A stretch of 64,000 nucleotides of DNA, taken from positions 6,563 to 70,562 of the forward strand of contig CAYJQX010000001.1 of NCBI GenBank assembly GCA_964372755.1, read 5' to 3'. The notes under the pieces were generated by a model. It worked only from the letters and a program-made list of their open reading frames with translations, was not told where the DNA came from and ran no database searches. The stretch is from an uncultured Candidatus Saccharibacteria bacterium. Its GTDB lineage: Bacteria > Patescibacteriota > Minisyncoccia > UBA9983. Positions within the stretch are counted from its first letter, which is position 1, and each line of letters opens with the position of its first letter. Below are positions 1,242 through 62,585 of this stretch, piece by piece. The translations under genes were made by a program, and so were the position numbers.

Positions 1242-1697
1242 TCCCCAGACCCCTTTCTGCGGGTGGGAAATCAACCGAGGCAAAACGAAAAATCCTTTTT
1301 CCCAGAAAAAAGATTTTCGCTTTGCCGAGTCCGTATTGAAGCCCCACGCACCCGGCGCGTGCCACATTACCAATTTTGGAAATAGGTTCTAACTTGGTAC
1401 AATAAATACACAATATAATCGAGTCAGGCGGGCGGGTAAGCCGTTAATGTAGGTTCGATTCCAACGTGGTGCAGAATACTTGAATTAGTCCGAACGCATT
1501 TTTCCGAAAAAATCCCCCCGAAAAAATTCGGAAAGGCGGCCGAGTCGCACCGCTCAAAACCGCAAAAGAACCCGGAGAAAAACATCGGCTCGAACCATGT
1601 TTTAGAAAATCGCCAATTCGTTTTTGCCCCGAAAATTCAATACCAACTGGCCGCCGAGCGAAGCGAGGCGGCTTCCTCTGGCTTGCTATTTCCGAAA

Positions 1698-1774
1698 TGG
1701 TGCGGGATGGAGGATTCGAACCCCCGGCATCGTCAGTGTAAATGACGCGCTCTAACCAACTGAGCTAATCCCGC
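1698..1774 (-). tRNA. tRNA-Val (anticodon TAC), CCA encoded
   Basis: Reverse complement is GCGGGAT TA GCTC AGTTGGTTA GAGC G CGTCA TTTACAC TGACG ATGCC GGGGG TTCGAAT CCTCC ATCCCGC ACCA. This gives a canonical cloverleaf with 7-bp acceptor stem, D arm, anticodon loop TTTACAC (anticodon TAC) and a TTCGAAT T-loop. Confidence 0.85.
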
Positions 1775-1865
1775 GATTATTTTAATCTATACGAAAAACA
1801 ACCTGAGGACAAGATGTGTATAAGTAGACTGGTAATATGTATTCTACATACAGTATACTTTACTT

Positions 1866-2540
1866 GTGAAAATAATTGAAAAACAAAAGGCTAGGGAGTT
1901 ACGAAAACAAGGTAAGTCGATTAACCAGATTGTAAAGGAAGCTGGATTATCAAAGTCTAGTGTTAGCGATTGGGTTAGAGATATTGTTTTAACAAAAGCC
2001 CAGAGAAATAAAATTTCTCAAAGAGGTAGGAGTGTTGAATCTATAGAGAGAAGAAGATCAAGTCGTCTTGCAAATGAATATAAAAAGAAAAGAGCCATAA
2101 TTGATTTAGCGAAAGAGGATTTTGATAATATTACTGCAGAGCAGTTAAAGCTAATCGGAATTATTTTATATTTAGGCGAGGGGGCAAAAACTAATAAGGG
2201 AGTGGTTTCTGTGGCAAACAGTGATCCGATAGTTATTAAAATTGTGGCTAAATTCTTAAGAGAAACCTGTAAGGTTTCTGAGGATAAATTTCGTGGACAT
2301 ATACATACATTTGCTCATGCCGATGTAAACAAAACAGAAAGATTTTGGTCAAAAATTTCAGGAATTCCCAGAAATCAGTTTTATAAAACATATATTAAGT
2401 CTAGTTCTGCTAGCTTGCAAAAAAGACAAACACTTCCTTTTGGAACATTTAGTATTTCTACCAATGACACAAAACTTTTTCTGACTATAATGGGTTGGAT
2501 TGAAAGGATTAAGGAATTAACTGTTGGATTTATTAAATAG
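1866..2540 (+). CDS. HTH (resolvase/sigma-r4-like) + LAGLIDADG-like endonuclease family protein
   Basis: GTG start. N-terminal HTH KSINQIVKEAGLSKSSVSDWVRD. LAGLIDADG-like block LIGIILYLGEGAKTNK. Paralog of ORF 61792-62457, aligning over LYLGEG / LFLYWGEGG and the C-terminal part. Lies directly beside tRNA-Val. Confidence 0.5.
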   Translation: MKIIEKQKARELRKQGKSINQIVKEAGLSKSSVSDWVRDIVLTKAQRNKISQRGRSVESIERRRSSRLANEYKKKRAIIDLAKEDFDNITAEQLKLIGIILYLGEGAKTNKGVVSVANSDPIVIKIVAKFLRETCKVSEDKFRGHIHTFAHADVNKTERFWSKISGIPRNQFYKTYIKSSSASLQKRQTLPFGTFSISTNDTKLFLTIMGWIERIKELTVGFIK

Positions 2541-2548
2541 ACTTTTTT

Positions 2549-3256
2549 ATGCAAATTACCTCTATTTACGAAGACGAAGATGTTTTGGTTTTGAATAAAC
2601 CCGCCGGATTACAGGTGCATCCTGCGCCGAATGGGGACACAACACAAAAAACATTGGTTGATTGGATTAAAGAAAACCGACCGGAAATTTTGGGGGTAGG
2701 CGATGACCCTCTTTTGCGCCCGGGGATTGTTCATCGTTTAGACAAAGACACCTCCGGTGTTTTAGTCGTCGCCAAAAATCAGTCCACGTTTGAGTTTTTA
2801 AAAAAACAATTCCAAGAAAAAGTTTTACAAAAAACATATATGGCCCTTGTTTACGGCAATATTAAAAACAACGAAGGAATTATTAATCGGCCGATTGGCA
2901 AGAGCAGGAGCGATTTCCGCAAGAGGTCTTCTTTTGATAACTTGCGTGGGAAAATAAGGGAGGCAATAACCGAGTACAAAGTTCTTCAAAGATTTAAGGA
3001 TTTCACATTTATTGAATGCTATCCAAAAACGGGTCGAACCCACCAGATAAGAGTCCATATGAAGTTTATCGGCCATCCGATAGTCGGGGATATTCTCTAT
3101 GGGGGAAGGAAGAAAATTCCGCCCGAAGGTCTTGCAAGGCAATTTCTGCACGCCAATTCCATAGAAATTACTCTTCCAAACGGAACAAAAGCCCTCTTTG
3201 AGGCTGATTTACCTGCTGATCTTGAGGGCGTTCTCAAAACCTTGCAAAAACTCTGA
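2549..3256 (+). CDS. RluA-family pseudouridine synthase
   Basis: Catalytic motif HRLDKDTSGVLVVAK and downstream THQIRVH are typical of RluA/RluD-class 23S rRNA/tRNA pseudouridine synthases. Confidence 0.85.
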   Translation: MQITSIYEDEDVLVLNKPAGLQVHPAPNGDTTQKTLVDWIKENRPEILGVGDDPLLRPGIVHRLDKDTSGVLVVAKNQSTFEFLKKQFQEKVLQKTYMALVYGNIKNNEGIINRPIGKSRSDFRKRSSFDNLRGKIREAITEYKVLQRFKDFTFIECYPKTGRTHQIRVHMKFIGHPIVGDILYGGRKKIPPEGLARQFLHANSIEITLPNGTKALFEADLPADLEGVLKTLQKL

Positions 3257-3281
3257 TTTCTGTGCTATTGTTACGAGCGTT

Positions 3282-3680
3282 ATGGCATACTCAATAAAGG
3301 AGGAAAGAAAAAGCTGGGCGCCTGTTATCAGAGCCGGCAACACCGTAAAGGTGTGGCAAAAAATCAAGGAAGGCGATAAATTCCGCCTTCAGGCTTTTGA
3401 AGGACTGGTAATCGCCCATAAACATGGCACTGAAGCCGGAGCGACTTTTACCGTGAGAAAAGTGTCAGAAGGTATTGGCATTGAAAGAATTTTTCCTCTT
3501 TATTCTCCGAATGTGGAAAAAATCGATCTTGTAAAAAGCTCTCAAGTGCGTCGCGCCAAACTTTACTATGTTCGCGAAAAAGCCGCTAAAGAGATAAAAA
3601 AGAAAATGCGTCGCTTAAACACTCTTCCCAAAAAAGAGGCGGTAATGGAGGATGTCATCGAAACTTTTAAAGAAGAATAA
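3282..3680 (+). CDS. rplS: 50S ribosomal protein L19
   Basis: MAYSIKEERKSWAPVIRAGNTVKVWQKIKEGDKFRLQAFEGLVIAHKHG...RAKLYYVR matches the L19 signature. The internal ATG at 3282 was chosen over the upstream GTG of the track ORF. Confidence 0.85.
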   Translation: MAYSIKEERKSWAPVIRAGNTVKVWQKIKEGDKFRLQAFEGLVIAHKHGTEAGATFTVRKVSEGIGIERIFPLYSPNVEKIDLVKSSQVRRAKLYYVREKAAKEIKKKMRRLNTLPKKEAVMEDVIETFKEE

Positions 3681-3733
3681 TCTTTTTTACTATAATCCTC
3701 AGGATTTGTTATTTTAAATAATTAATTAAAATT

Positions 3734-3816
3734 GCGCGGGTGCTGTAACGGTAGCCAGGCTGGCTTGAGGTGCCAGTGTCCGCAAGGACGTGGAGGTTCA
3801 AGTCCTCTCCCGCGCA
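3734..3816 (+). tRNA. tRNA-Leu (anticodon GAG), type II with long variable arm
   Basis: GCGCGGG TG CTG TAACGGTAGC CAG G CTGGC TTGAGGT GCCAG TGTCCGCAAGGACGT GGAGG TTCAAGT CCTCT CCCGCGC A. It has a 3-bp D stem, anticodon loop TTGAGGT and a variable-arm hairpin GTCC/GGAC. CCA is not encoded. Confidence 0.85.
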
Positions 3817-3967
3817 TAGTGAGCGAAGCGAACAAAGCGCGGAGCGAGCCAACTGCTTGGCTCGCGAGAGAGGGCTTGAATGCCGGAGTCATATCAAGTC
3901 AGCAGACGAGATGGCGAGGCGGGGGCGAGAAAATTTGTGAGTGACTGACGAACAAATTATTCGTGCC

Positions 3968-3995
3968 CAAGTCCTGATGTCTCTCCCGCGCACCA
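3968..3995 (+). repeat. direct degenerate copy of the tRNA-Leu 3' end (CAAGTCCT..TCTCCCGCGCA + CCA)
   Basis: CAAGTCCTgatgtCTCTCCCGCGCACCA matches the tRNA-Leu 3' region CAAGTCCTCTCCCGCGCA apart from a 5-nt insertion. The intervening 3817-3967 is GC-rich with the hairpin GAGCGAGCC aactgctt GGCTCGCGAG. Confidence 0.5.
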
Positions 3996-4072
3996 GAACA
4001 GAACTCAAAGGTTTCCTTCAACTTCGCTCAGGACAGGTTTCGGAGGTCGAATAAATGTGGCTTTGATAAAAT

Positions 4073-5149
4073 TTAATTGAAAATCTCAAACGAGCAGTTG
4101 TTTTTGTTTGGAATACTTCCTAGGTACTCGTCACAAAAAATCGCAGTTTCCTCGGGGGATAAAAGTTTTGGCTGGGTGCTTATTATTTTGTAGGGGATAA
4201 TATGAACCTCTGTTTTGTTTTGTCCCAAAATCACTCCACCCGCGATTCCTTGATTGGTCTCTGCTTCAAGCTGGTCAAAAACAAAATTTCCGAGAGAGTA
4301 AAAGATCGCTTTTCCTTTATATACTTCAACTGACTCTATGACATGAGGATGGTGGCCGAAAATTATATCGGCGCCACTGTCTATAAGGCTATGAGCTATT
4401 TGCTCCTGATTTTTTGAATGTTGCTTTTGATATTCTATTCCCCAGTGGATATTTACAACGACGTAATCGTTTTCTTCTTTTAATTTCCCAACGAGAGGGT
4501 AAAAATCATGTAGAGGAATCGGTTGGACGGTTTCGTCTATTCCCAAAAAGGCGATATTTTTCTCTCCGATCTGCTTTGAGATGTGGCTTTTCTCGATTGT
4601 TCGTCCGCCAAAATATTCTATGCCAAAGTCATCCAAATTATTTTCTGTGGCGCGGACACCCTCTAGGTAGCAATCAAAGATATGATTATTGGCTAAGTTT
4701 ACCAGACTTACCCCCGCTTTTTTTAGTCTTTCACCCGTACTTTTGGAAAATTGGAAATTATATGCTTTCTTTTGGCAGTTTTCTCTTTCTGTTTCAATAA
4801 TTGGTCCTTCCAGATTACCCACAACAAAGTCTATTTTTTCTTCCAGAAAAGCGTTTTTTATTTCCTCAATATGCTCAAAAGGTTCGCGTCCTTTTGTGAT
4901 GGCATTTCTTACTCCGCGATCCAGCATTATGTCTCCAAAATTTAGGATGGAAATACCCCCCGTCAATTCTTTATATGGGTCTTTCGGTGGGTTTGGTATT
5001 TCTGGATAATTTTCTTGGGAGGTTTGAATTGACTCGTTTTCTTTTGTCTTAAAATAAATCAAGGTTGCCAAGAGAAAAAATATGGCGCCCATGAATACAA
5101 GAAAATGCAACGATTTTTTACCTTTTACCTTTTCCGAGTAATTTTCCAT
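4073..5149 (-). CDS. CapA/PgsA-family metallophosphoesterase (poly-gamma-glutamate synthesis-like), N-terminal membrane anchor
   Basis: Motifs LANNH and GHHPH and a calcineurin-like fold signature. Start placed at internal Met (MENYSEKVKGKKSLHFLVFMGAIFFLL, a TM anchor) so it does not overlap the divergent ORF at 5282. Confidence 0.65.
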   Translation of the reverse strand: MENYSEKVKGKKSLHFLVFMGAIFFLLATLIYFKTKENESIQTSQENYPEIPNPPKDPYKELTGGISILNFGDIMLDRGVRNAITKGREPFEHIEEIKNAFLEEKIDFVVGNLEGPIIETERENCQKKAYNFQFSKSTGERLKKAGVSLVNLANNHIFDCYLEGVRATENNLDDFGIEYFGGRTIEKSHISKQIGEKNIAFLGIDETVQPIPLHDFYPLVGKLKEENDYVVVNIHWGIEYQKQHSKNQEQIAHSLIDSGADIIFGHHPHVIESVEVYKGKAIFYSLGNFVFDQLEAETNQGIAGGVILGQNKTEVHIIPYKIISTQPKLLSPEETAIFCDEYLGSIPNKNNCSFEIFN

Positions 5150-5281
5150 ATTCACCAATGATGTGATTCTACCACTTTCCAAAATTTTTACGCTTTCTCC
5201 CGGGGAGAGAAGGACTGGATTGTTTATGGTATTTGTGGTATCGTCGGAGACGGTATAAGACTTAATCAAAAATATAAAAAT

Positions 5282-6304
5282 ATGGAAAATGTAGAAACAG
5301 CTATAGGGGGCGCGGGGGAGAAAGGCTTTCAAGATCATGGAGAGATAAAATTTCCTAAGGTTTTTTCTTTAATTGAATCTTCTTGGAATATTTACAAAGC
5401 AAATTGGCGGACCTTTTTCGGAGTCATCATTATTCCTCTTGCTGTCTCTGCTTTGTTTAATATTACGAGTCAGTTTATTGGAAATAGTAACAGTTTTTTT
5501 GGTTTTGCTTCATTCTCTGTTTTTTATTTACTTGCCCTATTTTTCCAAGTTTGGGGATATGTGGCTCTTTTGGTTGTGATAACAAACAACGAAGAGAAAA
5601 TCAGCTTCAGAGAAGCTTTCAAAAGAAGTTTACGGAAAATCCATTCTTATCTCTGGGTGACTATTTTATATGTCGCTCTTTTTTTGGGAGGACTGATTTT
5701 TTTTGTAGTTCCTGCCGTTCTTTTTGCCCTGTGGTTTATTTTTAGTTTCTTTATTCTTGTTGCAGAAAACGAGAAAGGAATGAATGCGTTGCTGAAGAGC
5801 CGTGAATACGTAAGAGGTCATTGGTGGCGGATTTTCGGAAAAATATTTTCTTTTGTTTTCTTGGCAATTGTCTCTTGTGTCATATTTCTTTTGCCTGCGG
5901 GTTTGGCTTTTAAGTTTAGTGATTTTTCTTTTCCTCTTATCGCTTTCTTGATTTTTTACTTTTCTATTTTTATGGCATTGGTAACTTTTATTCTTGTCCC
6001 GACGGGCCAAATTTATGCTTTCCTGATATACAAACATCTCAAGGAAATAAAAAAAGATTTTGAATTCAAACCGACAAAGAAAAGAAAAGCCCTTTTCTTT
6101 TCCGTGGCAATCATTGGCCCAGTTGTCGCTCTTGCTTTAACGGCATATTTTATACTCACTGTTTTGGGCTCAATTTTTAAAGCTTTTGGAACACCAAGAC
6201 AGTTTCCTTATGAAAACACCTCCGTTTCTTCGGGGAATGATTTGCAGATTAAAGATCTGGATGCTTTTTTGAATCTCCCAAAAACGATTCCTCCAAAAAA
6301 TTGA
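5282..6304 (+). CDS. polytopic membrane protein, function unknown
   Basis: Multiple hydrophobic helices (FFGVIIIPLAVSALF, LIFFVVPAVLFALWFIFSFFILV and others). No catalytic motif recognised. Confidence 0.45.
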   Translation: MENVETAIGGAGEKGFQDHGEIKFPKVFSLIESSWNIYKANWRTFFGVIIIPLAVSALFNITSQFIGNSNSFFGFASFSVFYLLALFFQVWGYVALLVVITNNEEKISFREAFKRSLRKIHSYLWVTILYVALFLGGLIFFVVPAVLFALWFIFSFFILVAENEKGMNALLKSREYVRGHWWRIFGKIFSFVFLAIVSCVIFLLPAGLAFKFSDFSFPLIAFLIFYFSIFMALVTFILVPTGQIYAFLIYKHLKEIKKDFEFKPTKKRKALFFSVAIIGPVVALALTAYFILTVLGSIFKAFGTPRQFPYENTSVSSGNDLQIKDLDAFLNLPKTIPPKN

Positions 6305-6329
6305 CACATAATCTACGTTGTGATACAAT
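6301..6329 (+). promoter_or_regulatory. sigma70-like promoter: TTGACA-N17-TGaTACAAT, 6 nt before the GTG start of the MscS gene
   Basis: TTGACA at 6301-6306 and an extended -10 TGATACAAT at 6321-6329. Start codon GTG at 6336 implies a leaderless or near-leaderless transcript. Confidence 0.5.
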
Positions 6330-6335
6330 ATAGGG

Positions 6336-7214
6336 GTGGAGTTATTCTCTTTTATAGACGGTTTTTGGAACAAAAATACTTTAGCTGGAGCTACGGCTAT
6401 TTTTGTTCTTGTTATTATCTATCGGCTACTTAGCAAAACTCTTCTTAAACATTTTGAAGAAAAAGGCGTAAAACAAGACGAAAGAAAAAACTTCTTTCTT
6501 TTCTGGCGCTATGGCTGGTATACCTTGGGTATTGTTTTGCTTTTAGTGAGTTTTTCTGGTTCTATCGCGGGCTTGGGTATTTCCGCCGCGTTTCTCGGTC
6601 TTATTATGGGTTGGTCGCTTCAAGCGCCGGTAACGGGCCTTGCGGGCTGGCTTATGATTATTTTGAAACGTCCGTTTAAAATCGGGGACAGAATAATTAT
6701 TGCCGGCATTACCGGAGACGTAACGGATATTAATCTAACCCACATAGTTTTGAATCAGGTGGGTGGCACTATTGGCGGAGAGGAGAGATCGGGCCGGGCG
6801 GTTTTGATTCCAAACGCCACTTTGTTCGGGCAAATAATTTACAACTACACTTCAGAAAGTCATTATTTGCTTGATGAAGTGGTAATTAATGTTACTTTTG
6901 AATCAGATATGGAAGAAGCCAATAAAATTCTTCTTTTGTCAGCCGAAGAGGTGACAGGGGATGTAATGAGGAAAACAAATGAAAAGCCATTTATCCGAAC
7001 GGAAATCATGGAATATGGCGTGCGTCTTCGCTTGCGCTACAAAGCTTTCGCCAAAGACAGGCAGAGAACAACCAGCGAAATATCGGTGCGGATTTTAAAA
7101 GGTTTTAGGGCGTCAGACAAGGTGGCTTTTGCTTATCCTCATACGGAGATAGTTTATAAACCCGACACCAATACGCGAATTGATGCGAATGGCACGAATA
7201 GTATTAAATCCTAA
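6336..7214 (+). CDS. mechanosensitive ion channel, MscS family
   Basis: Three N-terminal TM helices followed by the MscS beta-domain pattern LKRPFKIGDRIIIAGITGDVTDINLTHIVLNQVGG. Confidence 0.8.
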   Translation: MELFSFIDGFWNKNTLAGATAIFVLVIIYRLLSKTLLKHFEEKGVKQDERKNFFLFWRYGWYTLGIVLLLVSFSGSIAGLGISAAFLGLIMGWSLQAPVTGLAGWLMIILKRPFKIGDRIIIAGITGDVTDINLTHIVLNQVGGTIGGEERSGRAVLIPNATLFGQIIYNYTSESHYLLDEVVINVTFESDMEEANKILLLSAEEVTGDVMRKTNEKPFIRTEIMEYGVRLRLRYKAFAKDRQRTTSEISVRILKGFRASDKVAFAYPHTEIVYKPDTNTRIDANGTNSIKS

Positions 7215-7262
7215 CTTCCTTCATTCGCGATATTCGTGGGTATTATTCGTGTATTGGTGTCG
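7163..7262 (+). repeat. about 100-nt imperfect-palindromic MITE-like repeat, copy 1 (terminal inverted repeats CGACACCAATACGCGAAT / ATTCGTGTATTGGTGTCG)
   Basis: Related copies at 27469-27602, 34733-34773 and 39161-39263. This copy contains the last codons and the TAA stop of the MscS gene. Confidence 0.55.
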
Positions 7263-7284
7263 TTACTAAAATTTCATTTTAACT

Positions 7285-7842
7285 ATGACTAATCTTTACA
7301 CAGGCAAAGGAGATGGCGGAGATACGGGATTTTTTGATACCAAAAAAAGAGTATCCAAAGGCTCTTTGCGCGTGGAAGCTCTTGGCGCTCTCGACGAGAT
7401 AAATTCCCTTTTGGGAGTTTTGAAAGTCAAAGCCAGAAAAGATAATTTTAAAAATGTAAGCGAAGTTTTGTTTATCGTGCAAAACGACCTTTTCACCATT
7501 CAAGCGGAAACGGCGGCTATTTATGCGGGGGAAAACACACCCACAAAAACAATGCCAAAAGAAAGAGTGGAGTGGCTCGAGGACATCATCCAAAAAATCG
7601 GCGAGCAGATGAACCCGATAAAAAGTTTTACTGTCGCTGGAGGAAGCGAGCTTTCCGCTACTTTTGATTATGCCAGAGCCATTTCAAGAAGAGTGGAAAG
7701 AGTGGTCGTGCGTCTCAAAGACGAAGAAGGTTTTGGAGTAGAGTCGCTTCGATATTTGAACAGGCTTTCTTCTCTTCTTTTTGCTTTAGCTAGATTTGTA
7801 AACCATAAGCGTGGTATAAGAGAGGAAGCTCCGAAGTATTAG
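7285..7842 (+). CDS. PduO-type ATP:cob(I)alamin adenosyltransferase
   Basis: N-terminus MTNLYTGKGDGGDTGFFD...RVSKGSLRVEALGALDEINSLLG matches the PduO/MMAB family signature. Confidence 0.75.
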   Translation: MTNLYTGKGDGGDTGFFDTKKRVSKGSLRVEALGALDEINSLLGVLKVKARKDNFKNVSEVLFIVQNDLFTIQAETAAIYAGENTPTKTMPKERVEWLEDIIQKIGEQMNPIKSFTVAGGSELSATFDYARAISRRVERVVVRLKDEEGFGVESLRYLNRLSSLLFALARFVNHKRGIREEAPKY

Positions 7843-7918
7843 AGAGGAGGGATTGTATGTGGGATGTAGAGTATAGTGTGTAACTAGTCAGTATTTTAGC
7901 GTATCATTGTAAACTAAT

Positions 7919-7995
7919 GGTGGTCGTAGCTCAATTGGTAGAGCTCCGGTTTGTGGTACCGGCGGTTGCGGGTTCAAGCCCCGTCGATCACCCCA
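7919..7995 (+). tRNA. tRNA-His (anticodon GTG) with extra 5' G(-1), CCA encoded
   Basis: G GTGGTCG TA GCTC AATTGGTA GAGC T CCGGT TTGTGGT ACCGG CGGTT GCGGG TTCAAGC CCCGT CGATCAC C CCA. The G-1:C73 pair is characteristic of tRNA-His. Confidence 0.85.
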
Positions 7996-8101
7996 GACGT
8001 TTCAACTAAAAATGTTTGTTTTAGGTTCTAAATAAGATTTCCTTTTCGCTTCGGCATCATAGATTAAAGCCCTTCTTTTTTCTCTGATACAATAGGCTGT
8101 G

Positions 8102-9814
8102 ATGACTCAAAATCAAGCGCTTGAGATAATGAAAACAGGCGCTAATGTTTTTTTGACCGGCGAGCCCGGATCAGGGAAGACGCATACCATAAACGAGTAT
8201 GTGGCTTATTTGCTCTCTTGTGGCATTGAACCTTCTATTACGGCTTCAACCGGCATTGCCGCGACCCATATTGGCGGAATGACTATTCACTCGTGGAGTG
8301 GTATCGGGATTAGATCCAGATTGACTGAATACGATTTAGATAAAATTACTTCAACAGAATATATTGTAAAACGGGTGCGAAAAGCCAAGGTTCTCATCAT
8401 CGACGAAATTTCCATGCTCTCCGGAGAAACTCTTAATATGGTGGACGCCGTGTGCAAAGAAATAAAAAGAAATTCACTCTCTTTTGGCGGAATGCAAGTG
8501 ATTTTGGTGGGGGATTTTTTCCAACTTCCGCCTGTAAATAAAATTGAAAGAGAGGATGAGCCGGCGCAAATTTCTTTTCTTTTGGAAAATAAATCACATT
8601 TCGCTTACGAATCAGCCTCGTGGAAACAGGCTAATTTTATTGTTTGTTATTTAACCGAACAGCACAGGCAGGACGACCCTGATTTTCTCTCGCTCCTTTC
8701 TTCAATAAGGCGGAAGAATTTTAACCTTAGCCAGATCAAACATATGGAAAATCGCAAGATTTTAATACAAAACGCACCGCCACATGCGCCAAAACTTTTT
8801 TCGCACAATATAGACGTGGATGATGTTAATAAAAAAGCCCTGGAAGATATTTCGGGGAGCCCAAAAGTTTTCGAGATGTCCTCAAAAGGGAATGAAATTT
8901 TGATAAATGCCCTAAAAAAAGGATGCTTGTCTCCAGAGAAACTTTCTCTTAAAATCGGAGCCTCGGTAATGTTTACGAAAAATAGCCCAAGAGAGGGATT
9001 TGTAAACGGGACGCTTGGAGAAGTGACAGGCTTTGACAAAGAAAACGGCTATCCGCTTGTTAAGATTCGCAGTGGAAGGACAATTATGGTTCAACCTATG
9101 GATTGGACGATTGAGGAAGGAGGCACTATTCGCGCGCGAATCACGCAGATGCCTTTGAGGTTGGCTTGGGCGATCACGGTGCACAAGAGCCAAGGAATGA
9201 GCTTGGATCAAGCCGTGGTAGATTTATCACAAGTTTTTGAATTCGGGCAGGGATACGTGGCTCTCTCCAGAGTGCGGAGATTTTCCGGTCTTTATCTGTT
9301 GGGTTGGAACAAGCGGGCTTTTGAGGTTCATCCGGAAGTCTTAGAAAAAGATCAGTATTTTCAAAGTATTTCCCAAGAGATGGCAAGCGCTTTTTCTAAA
9401 ATGGATTCTGGCGAGATTGCAAAATTGCACAAAAATTTTATTGTTGCTTGCGGAGGAAAGAAAACTCAATTGCGAAAGAAAGCGCTAACTCGAATCGGGA
9501 CAAAGGATAAGAAAAAAACGACCTTTGAAACAACCTTGGAAATTTTTAAAAAAGGGAATAATGTTTCGGAAATTGCCAAAGAAAGAAATTTGGCTGAAAC
9601 GACCATCGTTTCCCACTTGGAAAAATTATATATGAAAGATTTGATTGATCAGAAAGAAATTTTGCGTATTATTCCCGCGCGGACAAGGGTGGATTTGGAA
9701 AAGATACAAAGAGCTTTTGGAGAAAGTGAGGACAATAAGCTCCTGCCCGTTTTTGAGAAGTTTAAAGGTAAGTATTCGTTCGAAGATTTGAGACTCGTGA
9801 GGTTGCTTGTTTGA
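8102..9814 (+). CDS. Pif1/RecD-family ATP-dependent DNA helicase with C-terminal HTH domain
   Basis: Walker A GEPGSGKTH, Walker B VLIIDEISM, the Pif1 signature DFFQLPPV, and a C-terminal HTH region (NVSEIAKERNLAETTIVSHLEKL). The extended -10 TGATACAAT at 8085-8093 lies 8 nt before the ATG. Confidence 0.8.
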   Translation: MTQNQALEIMKTGANVFLTGEPGSGKTHTINEYVAYLLSCGIEPSITASTGIAATHIGGMTIHSWSGIGIRSRLTEYDLDKITSTEYIVKRVRKAKVLIIDEISMLSGETLNMVDAVCKEIKRNSLSFGGMQVILVGDFFQLPPVNKIEREDEPAQISFLLENKSHFAYESASWKQANFIVCYLTEQHRQDDPDFLSLLSSIRRKNFNLSQIKHMENRKILIQNAPPHAPKLFSHNIDVDDVNKKALEDISGSPKVFEMSSKGNEILINALKKGCLSPEKLSLKIGASVMFTKNSPREGFVNGTLGEVTGFDKENGYPLVKIRSGRTIMVQPMDWTIEEGGTIRARITQMPLRLAWAITVHKSQGMSLDQAVVDLSQVFEFGQGYVALSRVRRFSGLYLLGWNKRAFEVHPEVLEKDQYFQSISQEMASAFSKMDSGEIAKLHKNFIVACGGKKTQLRKKALTRIGTKDKKKTTFETTLEIFKKGNNVSEIAKERNLAETTIVSHLEKLYMKDLIDQKEILRIIPARTRVDLEKIQRAFGESEDNKLLPVFEKFKGKYSFEDLRLVRLLV

Positions 9815-9901
9815 CAAGACCTGTCGTGGAAAGCTAAAATTCCCTTTGGTTTTGTTTTTTAACTATATTTATCTTCTTAAAATAACGCGAGGGGGTTCGT
9901 T

Positions 9902-57717: not shown

Positions 57718-58164
57718 ATGCCAGTTTTAGCCGAAAATCGTAAAGCCAGATTTGATTATGAAATCATTGAAGTTTTTGAATCGGGCTTAAAACTTACAGG
57801 TAGCGAAGTGAAAGCTGTTCGGGATGGAAAGGCCTCTATTGCGGGCGCTCATGTCATTATTCGCGGCGGGGAAGCTTATATTGTGGGGGTATCCATACAG
57901 CCATACCAGCCTTCAAATAAGTCTTCTTTGGTGGAAAAAGAAAGAACCATCACTCTTCTTCTAAACAAAAAGGAAATAGAATATCTTTTTGGGAAAACGG
58001 AAAAAACTGGTTTGACAATTGTGCCTATACGTGTTTATACTAAAGGGCCGAGAATAAAGCTGGAAATAGCTCTTTCTCGAGGCAAGAAAAAGAGCGATAA
58101 GAGGGAAACCATAAAAAAAAGAGACGATGAAAGGATTTCCGCTCGCGCTCTAGTACGGGAGTGA
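57718..58164 (+). CDS. smpB: SsrA-binding protein SmpB
   Basis: ENRKARFDYEIIEVFESGLKLTGSEVKAVRDGKASIAGAHV matches the SmpB signature. TGGTATAAT lies 6 nt before the ATG. Confidence 0.9.
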   Translation: MPVLAENRKARFDYEIIEVFESGLKLTGSEVKAVRDGKASIAGAHVIIRGGEAYIVGVSIQPYQPSNKSSLVEKERTITLLLNKKEIEYLFGKTEKTGLTIVPIRVYTKGPRIKLEIALSRGKKKSDKRETIKKRDDERISARALVRE

Positions 58165-58228
58165 CAATTGGTATCGACAAGAAATGTACTTTTATATGCG
58201 CATCGAGCAACATCTCAAATCTCGTAAA

Positions 58229-58516
58229 TCTGGGGGATAAAAACTCAAATGTAGCATCACCTTTTGCTACTCCGGCTCCCGCATACGCGTAAAGTCGGCG
58301 TTTCTTTCCGCAATTCTTGGTAGCGGAGAGAGGCGTTAATTGCCAAGATCGAAATATCACTTTGATTGATAGATGATGTTTCTAAACAAAAATCAATCAC
58401 GGCTTTAAAGATTTGGCCCACTTTCTACTTTAAGGTTTAAAAAATAAAGTGAAGCTACATGCGTAGAAATATTCAAGGAACCTTCTTGCACGTGGGTTCG
58501 AACCCCACCACTTCCA
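58229..58516 (+). ncRNA. ssrA: candidate tmRNA (ssrA) region; ends not resolved
   Basis: Immediately downstream of smpB. A tRNA-like T arm GTGGG TTCGAAC CCCAC (58492-58508) is followed by a 7-nt acceptor-like strand CACTTCC plus A (58509-58516). Upstream candidate 5' end GGGGGAT (58229), hairpin GTAGCA..TGCTAC and a short Ala-rich frame GCT ACT CCG GCT CCC GCA TAC GCG TAA (ATPAPAYA*). The intrinsic terminator at 58580-58607 closes the region. No clean 5' acceptor partner could be found by eye. Confidence 0.35.
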
Positions 58517-58579
58517 CTCGACTCGTTTTGCTTTGGAAAGCAAAACTCGCTCGTGGTAAACCACGTGAGCGATAAAAAT

Positions 58580-58607
58580 ACCCAACCGTAACGGTTGGGT
58601 ATTTTTG
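58580..58607 (+). terminator. rho-independent terminator
   Basis: ACCCAACCG taa CGGTTGGGT ATTTTTG. Confidence 0.7.
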
Positions 58608-58699
58608 AGTTGAGTGCCCCGAGGTTTTGTCGAGGGGCAGTATTCGACGAGTCGAGCGGGCTGTTTACCATGAAGTATCCGAGGGGATATAATTTATCT

Positions 58700-58966
58700 A
58701 TGTATTTTGTTTATATGATTATGAATTCTAGTAGAGATCTTTATGTCGGAGTTACTAAAAATCCAAATGAAAGAGTAAATTTTCATAACAAAAAACAAGG
58801 AGCGAATTTTACTAAAAATAGACTAGAATTCAAGATAGTTTTTCTTGAAGAGTATAAAAGTTTTAAAGAAGCAAGGCAAAGAGAAATCCAAATTAAAAAA
58901 TGGCGAAGAGACAAGAAAGAACGTTTAATAAGTCTTTACAAACAAGGATTAAACACAAAGAAATAA
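58700..58966 (+). CDS. small GIY-YIG nuclease-superfamily protein (YhbQ/UPF0213-like)
   Basis: MYFVYMIMNSSRDLYVGVTKNPNERVNFHN matches the GIY-x10-YIG...R...H...N pattern. TATAAT lies 6 nt before the ATG. Confidence 0.6.
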   Translation: MYFVYMIMNSSRDLYVGVTKNPNERVNFHNKKQGANFTKNRLEFKIVFLEEYKSFKEARQREIQIKKWRRDKKERLISLYKQGLNTKK

Positions 58967-59041
58967 TAGCGGTAATCAAGAGTGGGTTTCCGAGTCGTTC
59001 CAACCCTCGGAGTTACCTCTATTATTTGATAATATAGGCTT

Positions 59042-59671
59042 ATGAAAAATCTTGCTTCAATTTCAAAAACAAAAAGATTTGCTTTCATAGATGTTCAAAA
59101 CACAGCGAGTACAACTGCTAAATTGCTCGGATTTATTATTGATTGACATAAACTTAGTGTCTATCTGAAAGAAAAATGGAATTGTGAAAAAGTTTTCTTT
59201 TATTCTGGTATTGACGAAGGGGATACAGAGTCTGCAAAAGAATTCGATTCTCTGTCAAAAAGTGGCTGTATTGTAAAAGCTAAAACCGTTTTTTCTTACA
59301 AGAAACCGGACAAAACAATATCTATAAAATGTGTTGATTGCGGAAAAGATAATGTTGAAGTTGTCGACATGGGATATAATAGAAAATCAAATTGTGATGT
59401 TGATTTGACTGTTGATGCTATGGAAATAGCCAGCACTAAAACAGAATTTCTTATTTTTACCGGTGACGGTGATTTTGATTATCTTATTCGTAAAGTGGTG
59501 GAAAGAGGAACAAAAGTTTATATAGTTTCTTCCAATGCTGGAGTTCGAAAACCTGGAATAAATACAAAACGCCTTTCTACTAGGCTTAAAAGCCTAGTAG
59601 ATGGAAATAGGGGAAAAATTAACCTTATTGATATCAATAGTTGGAAAATGAGGATAAAGAAAGAGATATAA
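59042..59671 (+). pseudogene. NYN/LabA-like (PIN-related) domain gene interrupted by an in-frame TGA at 59144-59146
   Basis: A single frame reads MKNLASISKTKRFAFIDVQNTASTTAKLLGFIID * HKLSVYLKEKWNCEKVFFYSGIDEGD...NCDVDLTVDAMEIAS...EFLIFTGDGDFDYLIRKVVERGTKVYIVSS. The NYN/LabA conserved blocks span the stop. TGA is a genuine stop elsewhere in this window (for example pilB). Confidence 0.5.
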
Positions 59672-59855
59672 TACAAATCGCCACGAAGCGTGGCGATTTG
59701 CGAATGACATCAGCATACTATCAAAATCAGGGAAAAAGTCAAGGTTAGTGTAGATAAAACACCGGAAACACTCAATCTCGCCCAATTGAAAGTTTATCGT
59801 TTTCGTGACTTATTATTTGCCTTTCTGCCCCTAAAATCCTATACTCTTTAGGTAT

Positions 59856-61718
59856 ATGGAAAGCTTAAAATCCTTTTCCCGCCATATTGTGGCCGCCCTT
59901 TTGATTCTGATGATTATGGCCGGTTTGTATTCCATAATTGTCGGACGCGAAGCCAAAAAACCGGAGACTCTGACTCTTTCGGAGGTTGTTGGCGCTATCA
60001 AAGGAGGCAATATCAAAAATATAGAAATCAAAGGAAATGATTTAAAAATTGTTTTTGGTGATGACTCTGTAAAGGAAGCAAAGAAAGAAAGCGATGCGTC
60101 TTTGACTGATACTCTCGCCAACTACGGACTTTCTAAAGAGGAAATTTCCAAAGTGGGAATTTCCATAAAAGAACCCTCAGGTTTTCTTTTCTGGATTGGA
60201 AATATCTTGCCCTTTCTTGCTCCCATTATAATTATCCTTGTTTTTTTCTGGCTGGCTTCAAGGCAGGTCAAGGGGGCAAGCGGACAAGCTTTTTCTTTCG
60301 GGCAATCAAGAGCGAGGATTGCTCTGCCGGATGATCAAAAACCAAAAACTACTTTCAAAGATGTGGCGGGCGTGAAAGAAGCCAAAGAGGAACTTCTGGA
60401 AATCGTGGATTTTTTGAGAAGTCCGGAAAAATTTCTTTCAATCGGAGCAAAAATTCCCAAAGGCGTATTGTTGATGGGCGCGCCGGGGACAGGAAAAACT
60501 CTTTTGGCCCGCGCGGTAGCGGGCGAAGCAGAAGTGCCGTTTTTTCATATTTCCGGTTCGGAATTCGTGGAAATGTTTGTGGGGGTGGGCGCTTCTCGCG
60601 TGCGTGATCTGTTTAAGATGGCTAAACGCGCCGCTCCTGCCATAATTTTTATAGACGAGATAGACGCGGTGGGAAGACACAGGGGTTCTGGTATGGGAGG
60701 GGGACATGACGAAAGAGAGCAGACCCTAAATCAGATATTGGTGGAAATGGATGGATTTGAGCCGACGGAAAAGGTGATTGTAATGGCAGGGACAAACAGG
60801 CCGGATGTGTTGGATCCTGCTCTTCTTCGGCCGGGCAGGTTTGACAGAAGAGTAATTTTGGATTTGCCGGATATAAAAGAAAGAGAAGAGATATTGCAGA
60901 TTCATTCAGTCGGGAAACCGCTTGCGAAAGATATTGTTTTAAGAGTCATTGCCGAGCGCACTCCGGGGTTTTCCGGCGCTGATCTCATGAACTTAATGAA
61001 CGAAGCGGCAATTTTAACCGCTCGGCAAAACAGGAAAGAAGTGGAGCAAGATGATCTTATTCGTTCTATCGAAAAAGTAATGCTGGGGCCGGAGAGAAAA
61101 AGCCGGTTACTGACCGCGAAAGAAAAAAAGATTACCGCTTATCATGAAGCCGGGCACGCTCTCGTCTCTTCTGTTTTGCCCCACGCCGATCCGGTGCATA
61201 AAGTCTCAGTTGTCTCAAGAGGGAGAGCTGCCGGCTACACGCTAAAACTTCCTCTTGAAGAGAAACATCTTCATTCAAGAGCCCATTTTCTGGACGATTT
61301 GGCGGTTTCTATGGGCGGTTTTGTGGCGGAGAAATTAATTTTCGGAGATATGACTACGGGAGCTTCAAACGATATTCGCGTTTCGTCTGATTTAGCGCGT
61401 GCGGTAGTCACAAAATACGGCATGTCGGAAAAAATCGGGCCAGTCGCTTATGGTGAGGACGAGCCGGCTCTTTTTCTGGGAAAAGATTTTGGGCATGGTA
61501 AAAACTACTCCGAAGAAACAGCCAAAGAAATTGATGCCGAGGTGACCAAACTGATGAAAGACGCCGAAAGGCGGGCGCGGGATGTCATCACCAAACACAA
61601 AGACGCGCTGGAAGCCATTACAAAAACTCTGATGGAAAAAGAAACGATCGAACAGGCGGATTACGAAAAAATAATATCCTCTTTTGGAATTACGCCTAAG
61701 AGAGTAGAGATAGTATAG
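59856..61718 (+). CDS. ftsH: ATP-dependent zinc metalloprotease FtsH
   Basis: Walker A GAPGTGKT, the SRH, the zinc motif HEAGHAL, and an N-terminal TM pair. Confidence 0.9.
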
Positions 61719-61791
61719 CTGTTTAGATAGATATTTTTGTAAAAACGAACACACGCTGTATAATATACGCACCATTTAATGGTTCGTATAT

Positions 61792-62457
61792 ATGGCAAGA
61801 AAAGAAGATAAAATAAAAGCAATAAGTCTCCGGCTTAAAGGCCAAAGTTACAGCCAAATAAAATCTAAAATTAAAATAAGTAAAAGCACCTTGAGCAATT
61901 GGCTTCAAGATTATCCGCTTTCAGAAAAGAGAATAAGAGAACTTCGCGATTTAAATCCCCAAAGAATAGAGAGGTATAGGGCAACTAGAGCTTTGCAGAA
62001 AAAAACTCGCTTGGATGAGATTTATGCAAAAGAGAAGAAAGCGCTTCTGCCTTTTTCAAAACGAGACCTTTTTATCGCAGGTCTTTTCCTGTATTGGGGA
62101 GAGGGAGGGAAAACCGCCAATGCACAGTTGACTTTAACAAATACAAAACCAAGTATTATCAAGTTTTTTATTTTTTGGGCGGACAAAGTTTTAAAAATAA
62201 ATAAAAAAGATATTGTATTTCGTCTGCATATTTTTAAGGATATGAGTCCCGAGAAAGAGATATTTGCTTGGTCTAAAGAGTTAAAAGTTTCTAAAAATCA
62301 GTTTAGGAAATGTTTTGTAAAGAAAACTTTAAGTTCTAGCGTGACATACAAAAGAAGCTTTAGGCATGGGACATGTGACGCGATAATCAGGGGTGCTCGA
62401 TTAGCAGAAAAAGTTTTAATGTCACTTAAAGCGATTGAAGATAGTTTCCGAAATTGA
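61792..62457 (+). CDS. HTH + LAGLIDADG-like endonuclease family protein (paralog of 1866-2540)
   Basis: HTH QSYSQIKSKIKISKSTLSNWLQD. LAGLIDADG-like block FIAGLFLYWGEGGKTAN. The stop lies 18 nt before the tRNA at 62476. Confidence 0.5.
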   Translation: MARKEDKIKAISLRLKGQSYSQIKSKIKISKSTLSNWLQDYPLSEKRIRELRDLNPQRIERYRATRALQKKTRLDEIYAKEKKALLPFSKRDLFIAGLFLYWGEGGKTANAQLTLTNTKPSIIKFFIFWADKVLKINKKDIVFRLHIFKDMSPEKEIFAWSKELKVSKNQFRKCFVKKTLSSSVTYKRSFRHGTCDAIIRGARLAEKVLMSLKAIEDSFRN

Positions 62458-62475
62458 TATAGTCAGCAAATAAGC

Positions 62476-62547
62476 GCGTCCGTAGCTCAATGGTAGAGCA
62501 GTCGTCTTATACACGACTGGCTGGGGGTTCGAGTCCCTCCGGACGCA
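62476..62547 (+). tRNA. tRNA with anticodon TAT (UAU; would decode AUA = Ile); CCA not encoded
   Basis: GCGTCCG TA GCTC AATGGTA GAGC A GTCGT CTTATAC ACGAC TGGCT GGGGG TTCGAGT CCCTC CGGACGC A. The cloverleaf is regular. Anticodon stem GTCGT/ACGAC is perfect and the loop CTTATAC puts TAT at positions 34-36. Confidence 0.65.
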
Positions 62548-62563
62548 TAGCAAGTCTTCAGGC

Positions 62564-62585
62564 ATGCGTCTGGAGGGACTCGAAC
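62564..62585 (+). repeat. inverted copy of the tRNA 3' end, forming a 22-bp hairpin with the tRNA T-arm/acceptor 3' strand
   Basis: ATGCGTCTGGAGGGACTCGAAC is the reverse complement of the tRNA 3' end GTTCGAGTCCCTCCGGACGCAT (62528-62549). One G-U position. A 14-nt spacer separates them. Confidence 0.6.

Follow-up and report, generated by a model that had tools for sequence, protein, structure and literature searches.

A predicted antisense RNA accompanies a recently interrupted, context-mobile NYN nuclease gene between ssrA and ftsH in a Patescibacteria-like genome

Several bacterial loci pair a harmful protein with a small RNA encoded in cis. In the Bacillus subtilis systems txpA/RatA and bsrG/SR4, the protein gene and the RNA gene converge on a common terminator region, the RNA has the stronger promoter, and the locus is a small accessory unit whose position varies and whose toxin is often dead. 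Escherichia coli SymE/SymR and RalR/RalA are closer in the type of protein, a nuclease-type harmful product that is checked by a cis-antisense small RNA (sRNA); we know of neither as a widely dispersed cassette. Here we describe a locus with features of both groups in a 64,000-nucleotide (nt) stretch of contig CAYJQX010000001.1 (the window), part of a metagenome-derived genome assigned to an uncultured Candidatus Saccharibacteria bacterium. Between ssrA, the gene for transfer-messenger RNA (tmRNA), and ftsH, the window contains a small GIY-YIG nuclease gene and a NYN/LabA-like nuclease gene with an in-frame TGA.

We think it probable that the interval at 58.5-59.8 kb consists of two independent, self-contained single-gene accessory cassettes, and that the NYN cassette is a selfish module of toxin and antisense RNA resembling type I systems, its toxin being dead in this genome. 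Both genes are accessory. Their G+C content is 30-35%, compared with 41% for the whole window, which is Patescibacteria-like and densely packed with long open reading frames (ORFs; read with the standard bacterial code). The NYN cassette shares the arrangement of the B. subtilis pairs and differs from them in its protein, a 209-amino acid (aa) soluble NYN nuclease, in an overlap of the hairpin plus about 10 nt, in a DnaA-box-like motif upstream of the sRNA promoter, and in that we infer the toxicity and its neutralisation. From SymE/SymR and RalR/RalA it is set apart by the position of the RNA, since their sRNAs overlap the 5' end or coding region, and by unrelated folds (AbrB-like in SymE, a small DNase in RalR). 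Of the features of type I systems, a predicted cis-antisense overlap is present; the protein has a soluble nuclease fold of 209 aa in place of a small hydrophobic peptide, and for this reason we do not file the cassette as a type I member.

An initial annotation had treated the two genes as one islet integrated at ssrA. Its placement of the putative ssrA, the GIY-YIG gene, the NYN gene and ftsH agrees with Rfam, Pfam and the ORFs (Table 1). The single islet does not survive comparison with related genomes: the NYN gene forms a cassette of its own, linked to the 5' end of ftsH. In a sister genome (L002; related loci are cited by our labels) it precedes ftsH, and the 667 nt of contig before it contain neither ssrA nor a GIY-YIG gene. 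The initial annotation also overlooked a conserved antisense sRNA gene at 59673-59742, inside the span that it described.

This sRNA gene belongs to a module on the minus strand, convergent with the NYN gene, in which a -35 box, a spacer, a good -10 box, about 7 nt, a conserved tail, an 11-bp hairpin and a U tract follow one another. The -35 box reads TTGACT or TTGACA in 52 of 67 loci, and the spacer measures 16-17 nt in 63 of 68, often with a TG extension. The tail of the predicted RNA is GUCAUUCGCA, or AUCCUUAGAA in other members. A match of at least 8/9 to the DnaA-box consensus TTATCCACA, in either orientation and no more than 40 nt from the -35 box, occurs in 29 of 61 loci, compared with 1.4% of control windows. 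The module accompanies almost every family locus retrieved (about 60 loci, down to 39% protein identity), and DNA similarity to family members elsewhere extends from near the ATG to 40-85 nt past the stop codon, at about 59742-59757.

The hairpin covaries. Across the alignment 95% of cells are paired, compensatory changes occur in eight of the 11 pairs, and no shuffle out of 500 is as good. Read on the minus strand the helix contains 37 G.U cells, compared with 0 that would be G.U on the plus strand, so that selection acts on the helix as RNA of the minus strand. For the predicted 46-nt RNA the folding energy is -20.6 kcal/mol (z=-7.0). A covariance model finds the module beside 66 NYN loci, of which 10 had no part in building it, and also next to two divergent paralogues; in 681 kb it finds no copy away from a NYN gene. 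The module is kept in the sister genomes L075 and L076 and is absent from distant viral NYN loci in IMG/VR. It matches no Rfam family up to E=5 and cannot be assigned to a known RNA family. These data strongly support a new family of predicted sRNAs tied to one NYN subfamily.

Table 1 Features of the region from smpB to ftsH, in window coordinates.
Feature	Position	Strand	Basis and remarks
smpB	57718-58164	+	Upstream neighbour of ssrA
tmRNA gene (ssrA)	58157..58519	+	Rfam RF00023, 104 bits, E=1.5e-39, full-length
Intrinsic terminator hairpin 3' of tmRNA	58574..58606	+	16-nt perfect inverted repeat, then T run
Promoter-like site of GIY-YIG gene	58664..58693	+	TTTACC-18-TATAAT, 10/12 matches (promoter scan)
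GIY-YIG gene, stand-alone nuclease domain, 88 aa	58700..58966	+	PF01541, E=1.7e-18
Short element GTGGGTTTCCGAGTCGTTCCAACCC	58983..59006	+	Common to window, L075 and L076; ~107-nt gap directly after
Extended -10 promoter of NYN gene (TGaTAATAT)	59027..59035	+	6 nt before ATG; left end of NYN cassette
NYN/LabA-like nuclease gene, 209 codons	59042..59671	+	PF01936, E=2.4e-14; TGA at codon 35 is the sole interruption
In-frame TGA for Trp35	59144..59146	+	TGG>TGA, G>A transition; next base C
Full 3' module (box, promoter, sRNA)	59655..59758	-	Covariance model R1, 84.5 bits, E=8e-14; only window copy
Predicted antisense sRNA, ~40 nt	59664..59709	-	Conserved 5' tail, hairpin, U tract; start placed from -10 position; alignment A3, 58 loci
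Hairpin common to the two convergent transcripts; terminator and body of antisense sRNA	59673..59701	-	Terminator scan, 13 pairs
Predicted antisense sRNA promoter	59715..59742	-	-35 TTGACT, 16-nt spacer, TG-extended -10 TAGTAT (promoter scan)
DnaA-box-like motif TTATCTACA	59749..59757	-	8/9 to consensus; distal right-hand end of NYN cassette
ftsH promoter region	59810..59855	+	TTGCCT-17-TATACT, 59817-59845 (promoter scan); copied left of NYN gene in sister genomes (alignment A4)
ftsH	59856-61718	+	

On the left side, the only feature common to family loci is a -10 box, extended (TGnTAnnAT) or plain; it precedes the NYN ATG by 6-9 nt in 18 of the 30 distinct loci that we examined. Because of this short distance, the NYN mRNA is probably leaderless. 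The match to PF01936 (54.5 bits, cut-off 24.2) covers residues 15-164 and so extends over both sides of the TGA; together with an alignment of 31 family members (A1) it places the conserved blocks on either side, recognized in the initial annotation, in one protein family. The read-through protein has 469 homologues in the protein collection, nearly all about 200 aa long. The acidic active-site residues D17, D119, D125, D142 and D144 are invariant in the 31 sequences and all are encoded in the window, all except D17 lying 3' of the stop; every family-invariant residue is still encoded.

An AlphaFold2 model of the protein (mean predicted local distance difference test score, pLDDT, 85) has a PIN-like alpha/beta fold. 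The best matches among solved structures are the LabA-like 2qip (target-normalised TM-score 0.72) and the NYN domain of MARF1 (0.69-0.70). Inserted into the model is a Cys-bearing beta segment (residues ~84-118, with C97, C100 and C118 invariant) that 2qip does not have. A related observation concerns window positions 59097-59116 and C48, C76, C97, C100 and C118 of the protein: four of the cysteines are invariant and one is near-invariant. The cysteines and the modelled segment suggest a zinc-binding insertion particular to this NYN subfamily. The protein thus resembles LabA-like NYN proteins (PF01936, COG1432; 2qip) in its above-threshold Pfam match, predicted PIN-like fold and conserved acidic residues, and departs from them in its divergence, its Cys-containing beta insert and its obligatory antisense sRNA partner. 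It scores only 18.7 bits to TIGR00288, and its sequence match to a solved structure covers the C-terminal half only. A survey of the PIN-like superfamily gives the function of the bacterial LabA-like group as unknown and ties these proteins by gene neighbourhood to tRNA and rRNA processing (PMC5499597). PADLOC assigned the gene the generic NYN profile and no anti-phage defence model, and a search of one literature library found no paper linking NYN proteins with Patescibacteria. A phage origin of the cassette was considered and rejected, as IMG/VR holds distant NYN relatives only (24-44% identity), none with the sRNA module.

The cassette is conserved as a unit and changes its genomic context. 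The family lies next to ftsH only in the closest relatives of the window; elsewhere it is beside neither ftsH nor smpB, and it is rarely near a tRNA or tmRNA gene. General targeting of such genes was rejected, a tRNA being directly adjacent in only 4-5 of 60 loci. Some genomes carry at least two NYN copies (L018 and L023; L017 and L044; L021 and L042). Direct repeats of 30-117 nt flank the NYN gene in 13 of 60 loci, compared with 8 of 126 size-matched ORFs from the same loci (p=0.005); these eight control ORFs themselves include a further NYN gene, two SocA/Panacea genes and a Bro-N gene. What is repeated is local sequence, such as a terminator, a promoter or the start of the next gene, and it differs between genomes. 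No integrase or recombinase gene was seen in the ~12-kb stretches retrieved around cassettes.

One locus, L059, contains an array of single-gene cassettes at 1605-6780, made up of NYN paralogues (24-46% identical to the window protein) and a SocA/Panacea gene. Six copies of an 80-nt unit that includes a terminator hairpin and a promoter-like stretch lie between the cassettes and are 66-98% identical to the reference copy; the cassette proteins are far more divergent than these repeats. The layout recalls integron cassette arrays, in that single promoter-proximal genes are separated by a hairpin-bearing repeat of ~80 nt. It differs from them in that the repeat is local target sequence that varies by genome and not an element-borne attC.

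The protein gene is repeatedly lost while the RNA gene is kept. Elsewhere in the family, the NYN gene is frameshifted in L051, L056, L060 and L067, truncated at the 5' end in L023 and L068, and interrupted by an internal stop in L036 (TAG) and L055 (TAA). All of these loci, and L075 (below), retain the sRNA module, a pattern that is the one indirect sign of a toxic protein neutralised by the RNA.

The history at ftsH can be followed in the cluster of four genomes whose FtsH proteins share 90% identity, comprising the window and the sisters L002, L075 and L076. In L075, gene order matches the window throughout (L20, IF3, smpB, ssrA, GIY-YIG, NYN, ftsH), and its NYN gene has an in-frame deletion of residues 12-81 (70 codons) that removes Asp17. 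The NYN gene is intact in L076, where a GIY-YIG gene and ftsH accompany it, and in L002, where it and ftsH follow a different upstream gene. The comparison of related genomes proposed in the initial annotation thus yields both intact versions of the gene and a second loss; as the window carries the TGA and L075 a 70-codon deletion, the nuclease was lost independently in two of the four cluster genomes. All three sisters carry, ahead of the NYN gene, an additional copy of the ftsH promoter and initial ~22 codons (ftsH'), which is 87-91% identical to the real copy 900 nt downstream. This duplicate indicates that the cassette entered at the 5' end of ftsH with duplication of ~110 nt of target. 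The window is without the ~107 nt that hold ftsH' in the sisters, and its DNA similarity to L002 and L076 begins on the left at 59017. A search for a relic of ftsH' inside the window was negative: alignment is limited to the final ~35 nt ahead of the NYN ATG, and the rest is deleted.

The TGA replaces a near-invariant tryptophan. Alignment shows Trp at column 35 in at least 90% of the 31 aligned relatives, and codon 35 is TGG in 62 of 66 retrieved family loci whose alignment covers it, never a Cys codon, which led us to reject selenocysteine recoding. The nearest intact relatives, L002 and L076, are 89% identical in protein (the FtsH of L002 is 95% identical, in the same ftsH context) and read GAT TGG CAC where the window reads GAT TGA CAT; the lesion is therefore a single G>A transition. 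It leaves a product of 34 aa, the next in-frame start being Met110, and removes 175 of 209 residues, including six of seven family-invariant Asp. When substitutions were polarised with six outgroups, the window branch of the NYN gene carried 25 synonymous and 8 non-synonymous changes besides the TGA, a ratio of non-synonymous to synonymous rates (dN/dS) of ~0.1. Purifying selection thus covered nearly the whole branch, and the stop is recent. As the initial annotation had noted, TGA is a real stop in neighbouring genes: it terminates 11 of 57 long window ORFs, and no other gene has an internal TGA. When TGA is taken as sense, long-ORF coverage rises only from 0.87 to 0.90, which gives a negative test for reassignment of this stop codon to Trp or Gly. 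The sequence is most simply read as a recent nonsense mutation in the ordinary decay of an accessory gene, the explanation that the initial annotation had preferred, and the TGG of the closest intact relatives bears it out.

Three other explanations of the TGA have to be weighed. The gene could still function if UGA at codon 35 were read through by tRNA-Trp, in a programmed or leaky manner, leaving a down-tuned allele. Such decoding would restore the native residue, as near-cognate decoding of UGA inserts Trp, and the following base is C; UGA followed by C is reportedly a weak, even the weakest, stop context in E. coli. Some full-length NYN protein could therefore be made, which counts against a dead toxin. 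The rest of the ORF is free of further lesions and the low dN/dS would fit a working gene, although a very recent mutation predicts the same ratio. We nevertheless regard readthrough as unlikely: among other genomes that use TGA as a stop none has TGA at codon 35 (the sole other case, L057, reads TGA as Trp), no conserved downstream structure points to a readthrough signal, and the deletion of 70 codons of the same gene in a sister shows that its loss is tolerated. An error of sequencing or assembly, with TGG in the true genome, would need a difference of only one base in a metagenome-derived genome. We consider this highly improbable, since a separately built Logan contig (run ERR4904391; L001) is identical to window 58683-59854 over 1172 of 1172 bases, TGA included, and the site lies outside any homopolymer; the suggestion of an assembly error in the initial annotation thus finds little room. 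As ERR4904391 may be the genome's own sample, the match rules out an assembler artefact and not a systematic read error. Finally, TGA could be a sense codon brought in by horizontal transfer of the cassette from a recoded relative. A cassette-bearing recoded lineage does exist, L057 has TGA at the same Trp35, and L052 and L058 look similar. Yet the window ORF is 87% identical in DNA to those of L002 and L076, which flank the codon in the same way and differ there by one transition, while its protein is only 45% identical to that of L057; the other Trp codons of the window gene are TGG, and TGA is a stop in the window. The cassette phylogeny here refutes such a transfer, which we regard as hardly conceivable.

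The recoded relatives are of interest in themselves. L057 (CAZCTX010000005.1; regions 3366-3980, 4230-5570 and 6911-9847) reads TGA as Trp: the P-loop of its PurA, GAQ-W-GDEGKGK, has TGA at the Trp position, and its long genes contain 4-8 in-frame TGAs. Its NYN gene carries TGA at the same Trp35 as the window. We considered a second, independent nonsense mutation at this codon and ruled it out by the code of that genome. L052 and L058 (30% G+C, same NYN subgroup) show an ORF-lengthening signal like that of L057, which suggests that the three represent a TGA=Trp lineage among Patescibacteria-like genomes. Another observation concerns the limits of the Logan contig, one of which falls at the GIY-YIG promoter and the other 2 nt short of the ftsH ATG; as points of graph branching, these limits would fit strain variation in the flanks within the sample.

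The history and working of the NYN cassette may be pictured as follows. Insertion into the 5' end of ftsH probably took place in an ancestor of the window and its three sisters and doubled the ftsH promoter and ~22 codons; most of this duplicate was later lost in the window. The cassette, at ~59017-59760, comprises an extended -10, a probably leaderless ORF, the shared hairpin terminator, the predicted convergent sRNA gene with its near-consensus promoter, and the DnaA-box-like motif. Its nuclease may be a harmful product translated from a weakly expressed, probably leaderless mRNA and held down by an abundant cis-antisense sRNA by way of the 3' hairpin that the two transcripts share. Alleles without nuclease function would then be tolerated and recur, as in the window, where a nonsense allele stands beside an intact sRNA gene. 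The data show how the cassette is built and conserved, the covariation and the strand of the RNA, that the TGA is real and recent, the changing context and the repeated inactivation; what we infer is that the protein is toxic and the RNA its antitoxin, what the DnaA box does, and how the cassette inserts. Going further, we tentatively raise the possibility that the NYN gene, sRNA and DnaA box form a Patescibacteria-specific mobile addiction (toxin-antitoxin) cassette that passes from genome to genome, has no recombinase of its own, duplicates 30-200 nt of target and sometimes builds arrays, with the window as a toxin-null survivor. Such a cassette is apparently undescribed, as searches of the literature library mentioned above found no prior description.

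Several points weigh against a selfish toxin/antisense-RNA module. Classical type I toxins are small membrane peptides (<60 aa), not 209-aa nucleases. The antisense overlap is short, consisting of the hairpin and the tail, and when the sRNA tail is paired in trans with 5' ends of NYN mRNAs, cognate partners do no better than non-cognate ones (p=0.11, 0.39). The transcription starts of both RNAs are predictions from promoter geometry, and the window itself is without a flanking duplication, the evidence of insertion coming from the sister genomes. Most family copies are intact and under purifying selection, and a housekeeping or regulatory RNase would look alike. This leads to the rival view that the NYN-sRNA unit is a host nuclease for RNA processing or regulation, tuned by its cis-antisense RNA, whose position varies by ordinary genome rearrangement. 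The breadth of intact copies (55-89% identity over several candidate phyla), the link of LabA-like NYN neighbourhoods to tRNA and rRNA processing (PMC5499597) and the want of any anti-phage model match beyond the generic NYN profile would all suit a host enzyme. It is harder to reconcile with a cassette that is a complete transcription unit with its own promoter, terminator and sRNA at every site, that is multi-copy in some genomes and forms arrays with Panacea-domain genes, that is flanked by target duplications more often than other genes, that is recurrently inactivated, and whose G+C is below that of its surroundings. We find a host RNase rather doubtful on this evidence and retain the selfish module as the probable explanation.

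The second cassette, the GIY-YIG gene, follows a different mode of insertion. Its protein scores 67.2 bits to PF01541 (cut-off 22.6), and Y15, G17, R25, H29, N30 and E62 are invariant among 27 relatives. As the -10 TATAAT (58688-58693) ends only 6 nt before the ATG, the mRNA is probably leaderless. There are 539 homologues in Patescibacteria (57-75% identity). Upstream flanks of at least 450 nt are available for 61 metagenome loci, and 42 of these have a tmRNA (28) or tRNA (14) gene on the same strand 32-372 nt upstream, at a median spacing of 147 nt, and the spacing from the tmRNA is 181 nt in the window. The 3' end of ssrA as an integration hot-spot, proposed in the initial annotation, therefore holds for the GIY-YIG family and not for the NYN cassette, which is rarely near a tRNA or tmRNA. 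A copy of the 3' end of the RNA gene lies downstream of the GIY-YIG gene in 6 of the 42 loci; the window is without such a copy. In L075 and L076, the same slot holds a GIY-YIG gene that is only 24% identical to that of the window, and the segment that diverges between window and sisters begins at the last tmRNA bases. The slot has thus been refilled by a different, non-orthologous gene. L076 also contains a 55-nt stretch twice (1-55 and 126-180, 125 nt apart) at the start of the contig, directly upstream of its GIY-YIG gene; this is a true duplication at the flank of the post-tmRNA segment or else an artefact of assembly at the contig end.

The GIY-YIG insert is a mini-cassette of ~0.45 kb without an integrase. 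It shares with ssrA islands that carry tyrosine integrases a foreign segment that begins exactly at the tmRNA end and, in the six loci above, the copied RNA 3' end. Unlike such islands, it holds one 88-aa gene, no integrase and no significant ssrA repeat, and the NYN cassette beyond it is not ssrA-targeted. Between ssrA and ftsH we found no tyrosine or serine integrase, the GIY-YIG and NYN ORFs being the only ones there with protein-family support, and when the far border is compared with the 3' end of ssrA for a direct repeat, the best match (9/10 bases) is within the control distribution and not significant. The free-standing GIY-YIG homing endonucleases of phage T4 (Seg) are likewise small genes between conserved genes, present, absent or swapped, beside tRNA-type genes. 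They differ from the 88-aa protein, which is the catalytic domain only and has no DNA-binding domain; no cleavage site was identified and no homing event was seen. PADLOC gave no defence match for the gene, and a search of the same literature library found no paper linking bacterial GIY-YIG genes with tmRNA.

The tmRNA gene itself begins inside the last codons of smpB, so that its 5' end overlaps the smpB stop codon, and its 3' end reads CCACTC in the window and CCACCA in L075. ARAGORN made no tmRNA call at 58157-58519, although Rfam RF00023 matches there; it also misses the tmRNA in nine further loci (L104, L106, L110, L116, L118, L124, L133, L141 and L167), where RF00023 scores 48-116 bits. 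On the other side of ftsH, within 61719-62475, a 221-aa ORF (61792-62457) lies ahead of a tRNA-Ile(UAU) gene (62476-62547). It has an HTH_23-like N-terminus and weak matches to the N-terminal parts of IS3 and IS630 transposases. As its ~700-nt segment is missing from L002 and L076, it represents a third single-gene insertion of the neighbourhood. A reverse complement of the 3' half of the tRNA gene (62527-62548), 22 nt long and 95% complementary, lies 15 nt further on (62564-62585) and would pair with the tRNA 3' end as a long hairpin.

The nonsense codon alone is ordinary gene decay, and its value lies in pointing to the cassette and to two modes of single-gene insertion. Annotations should list the NYN ORF as a pseudogene, and on short contigs gene callers may translate TGA as Trp without notice, as the Logan pipeline did here (protein P0001).

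To our knowledge, almost nothing is known of RNA regulation or selfish elements in Patescibacteria, and we know of no cultured member of this clade. The predicted sRNA family, with covariation, strand-specific wobble pairs and a promoter of its own, is tied to one NYN subfamily in ~70 Patescibacteria genomes, and the cassette gives a LabA-like NYN protein a testable function. The two cassettes also bear on how accessory genes are gained and lost in these organisms: these reduced genomes gain single genes as complete transcription units flanked by long target duplications, and mini GIY-YIG genes land in the 3' flank of tmRNA and tRNA genes.

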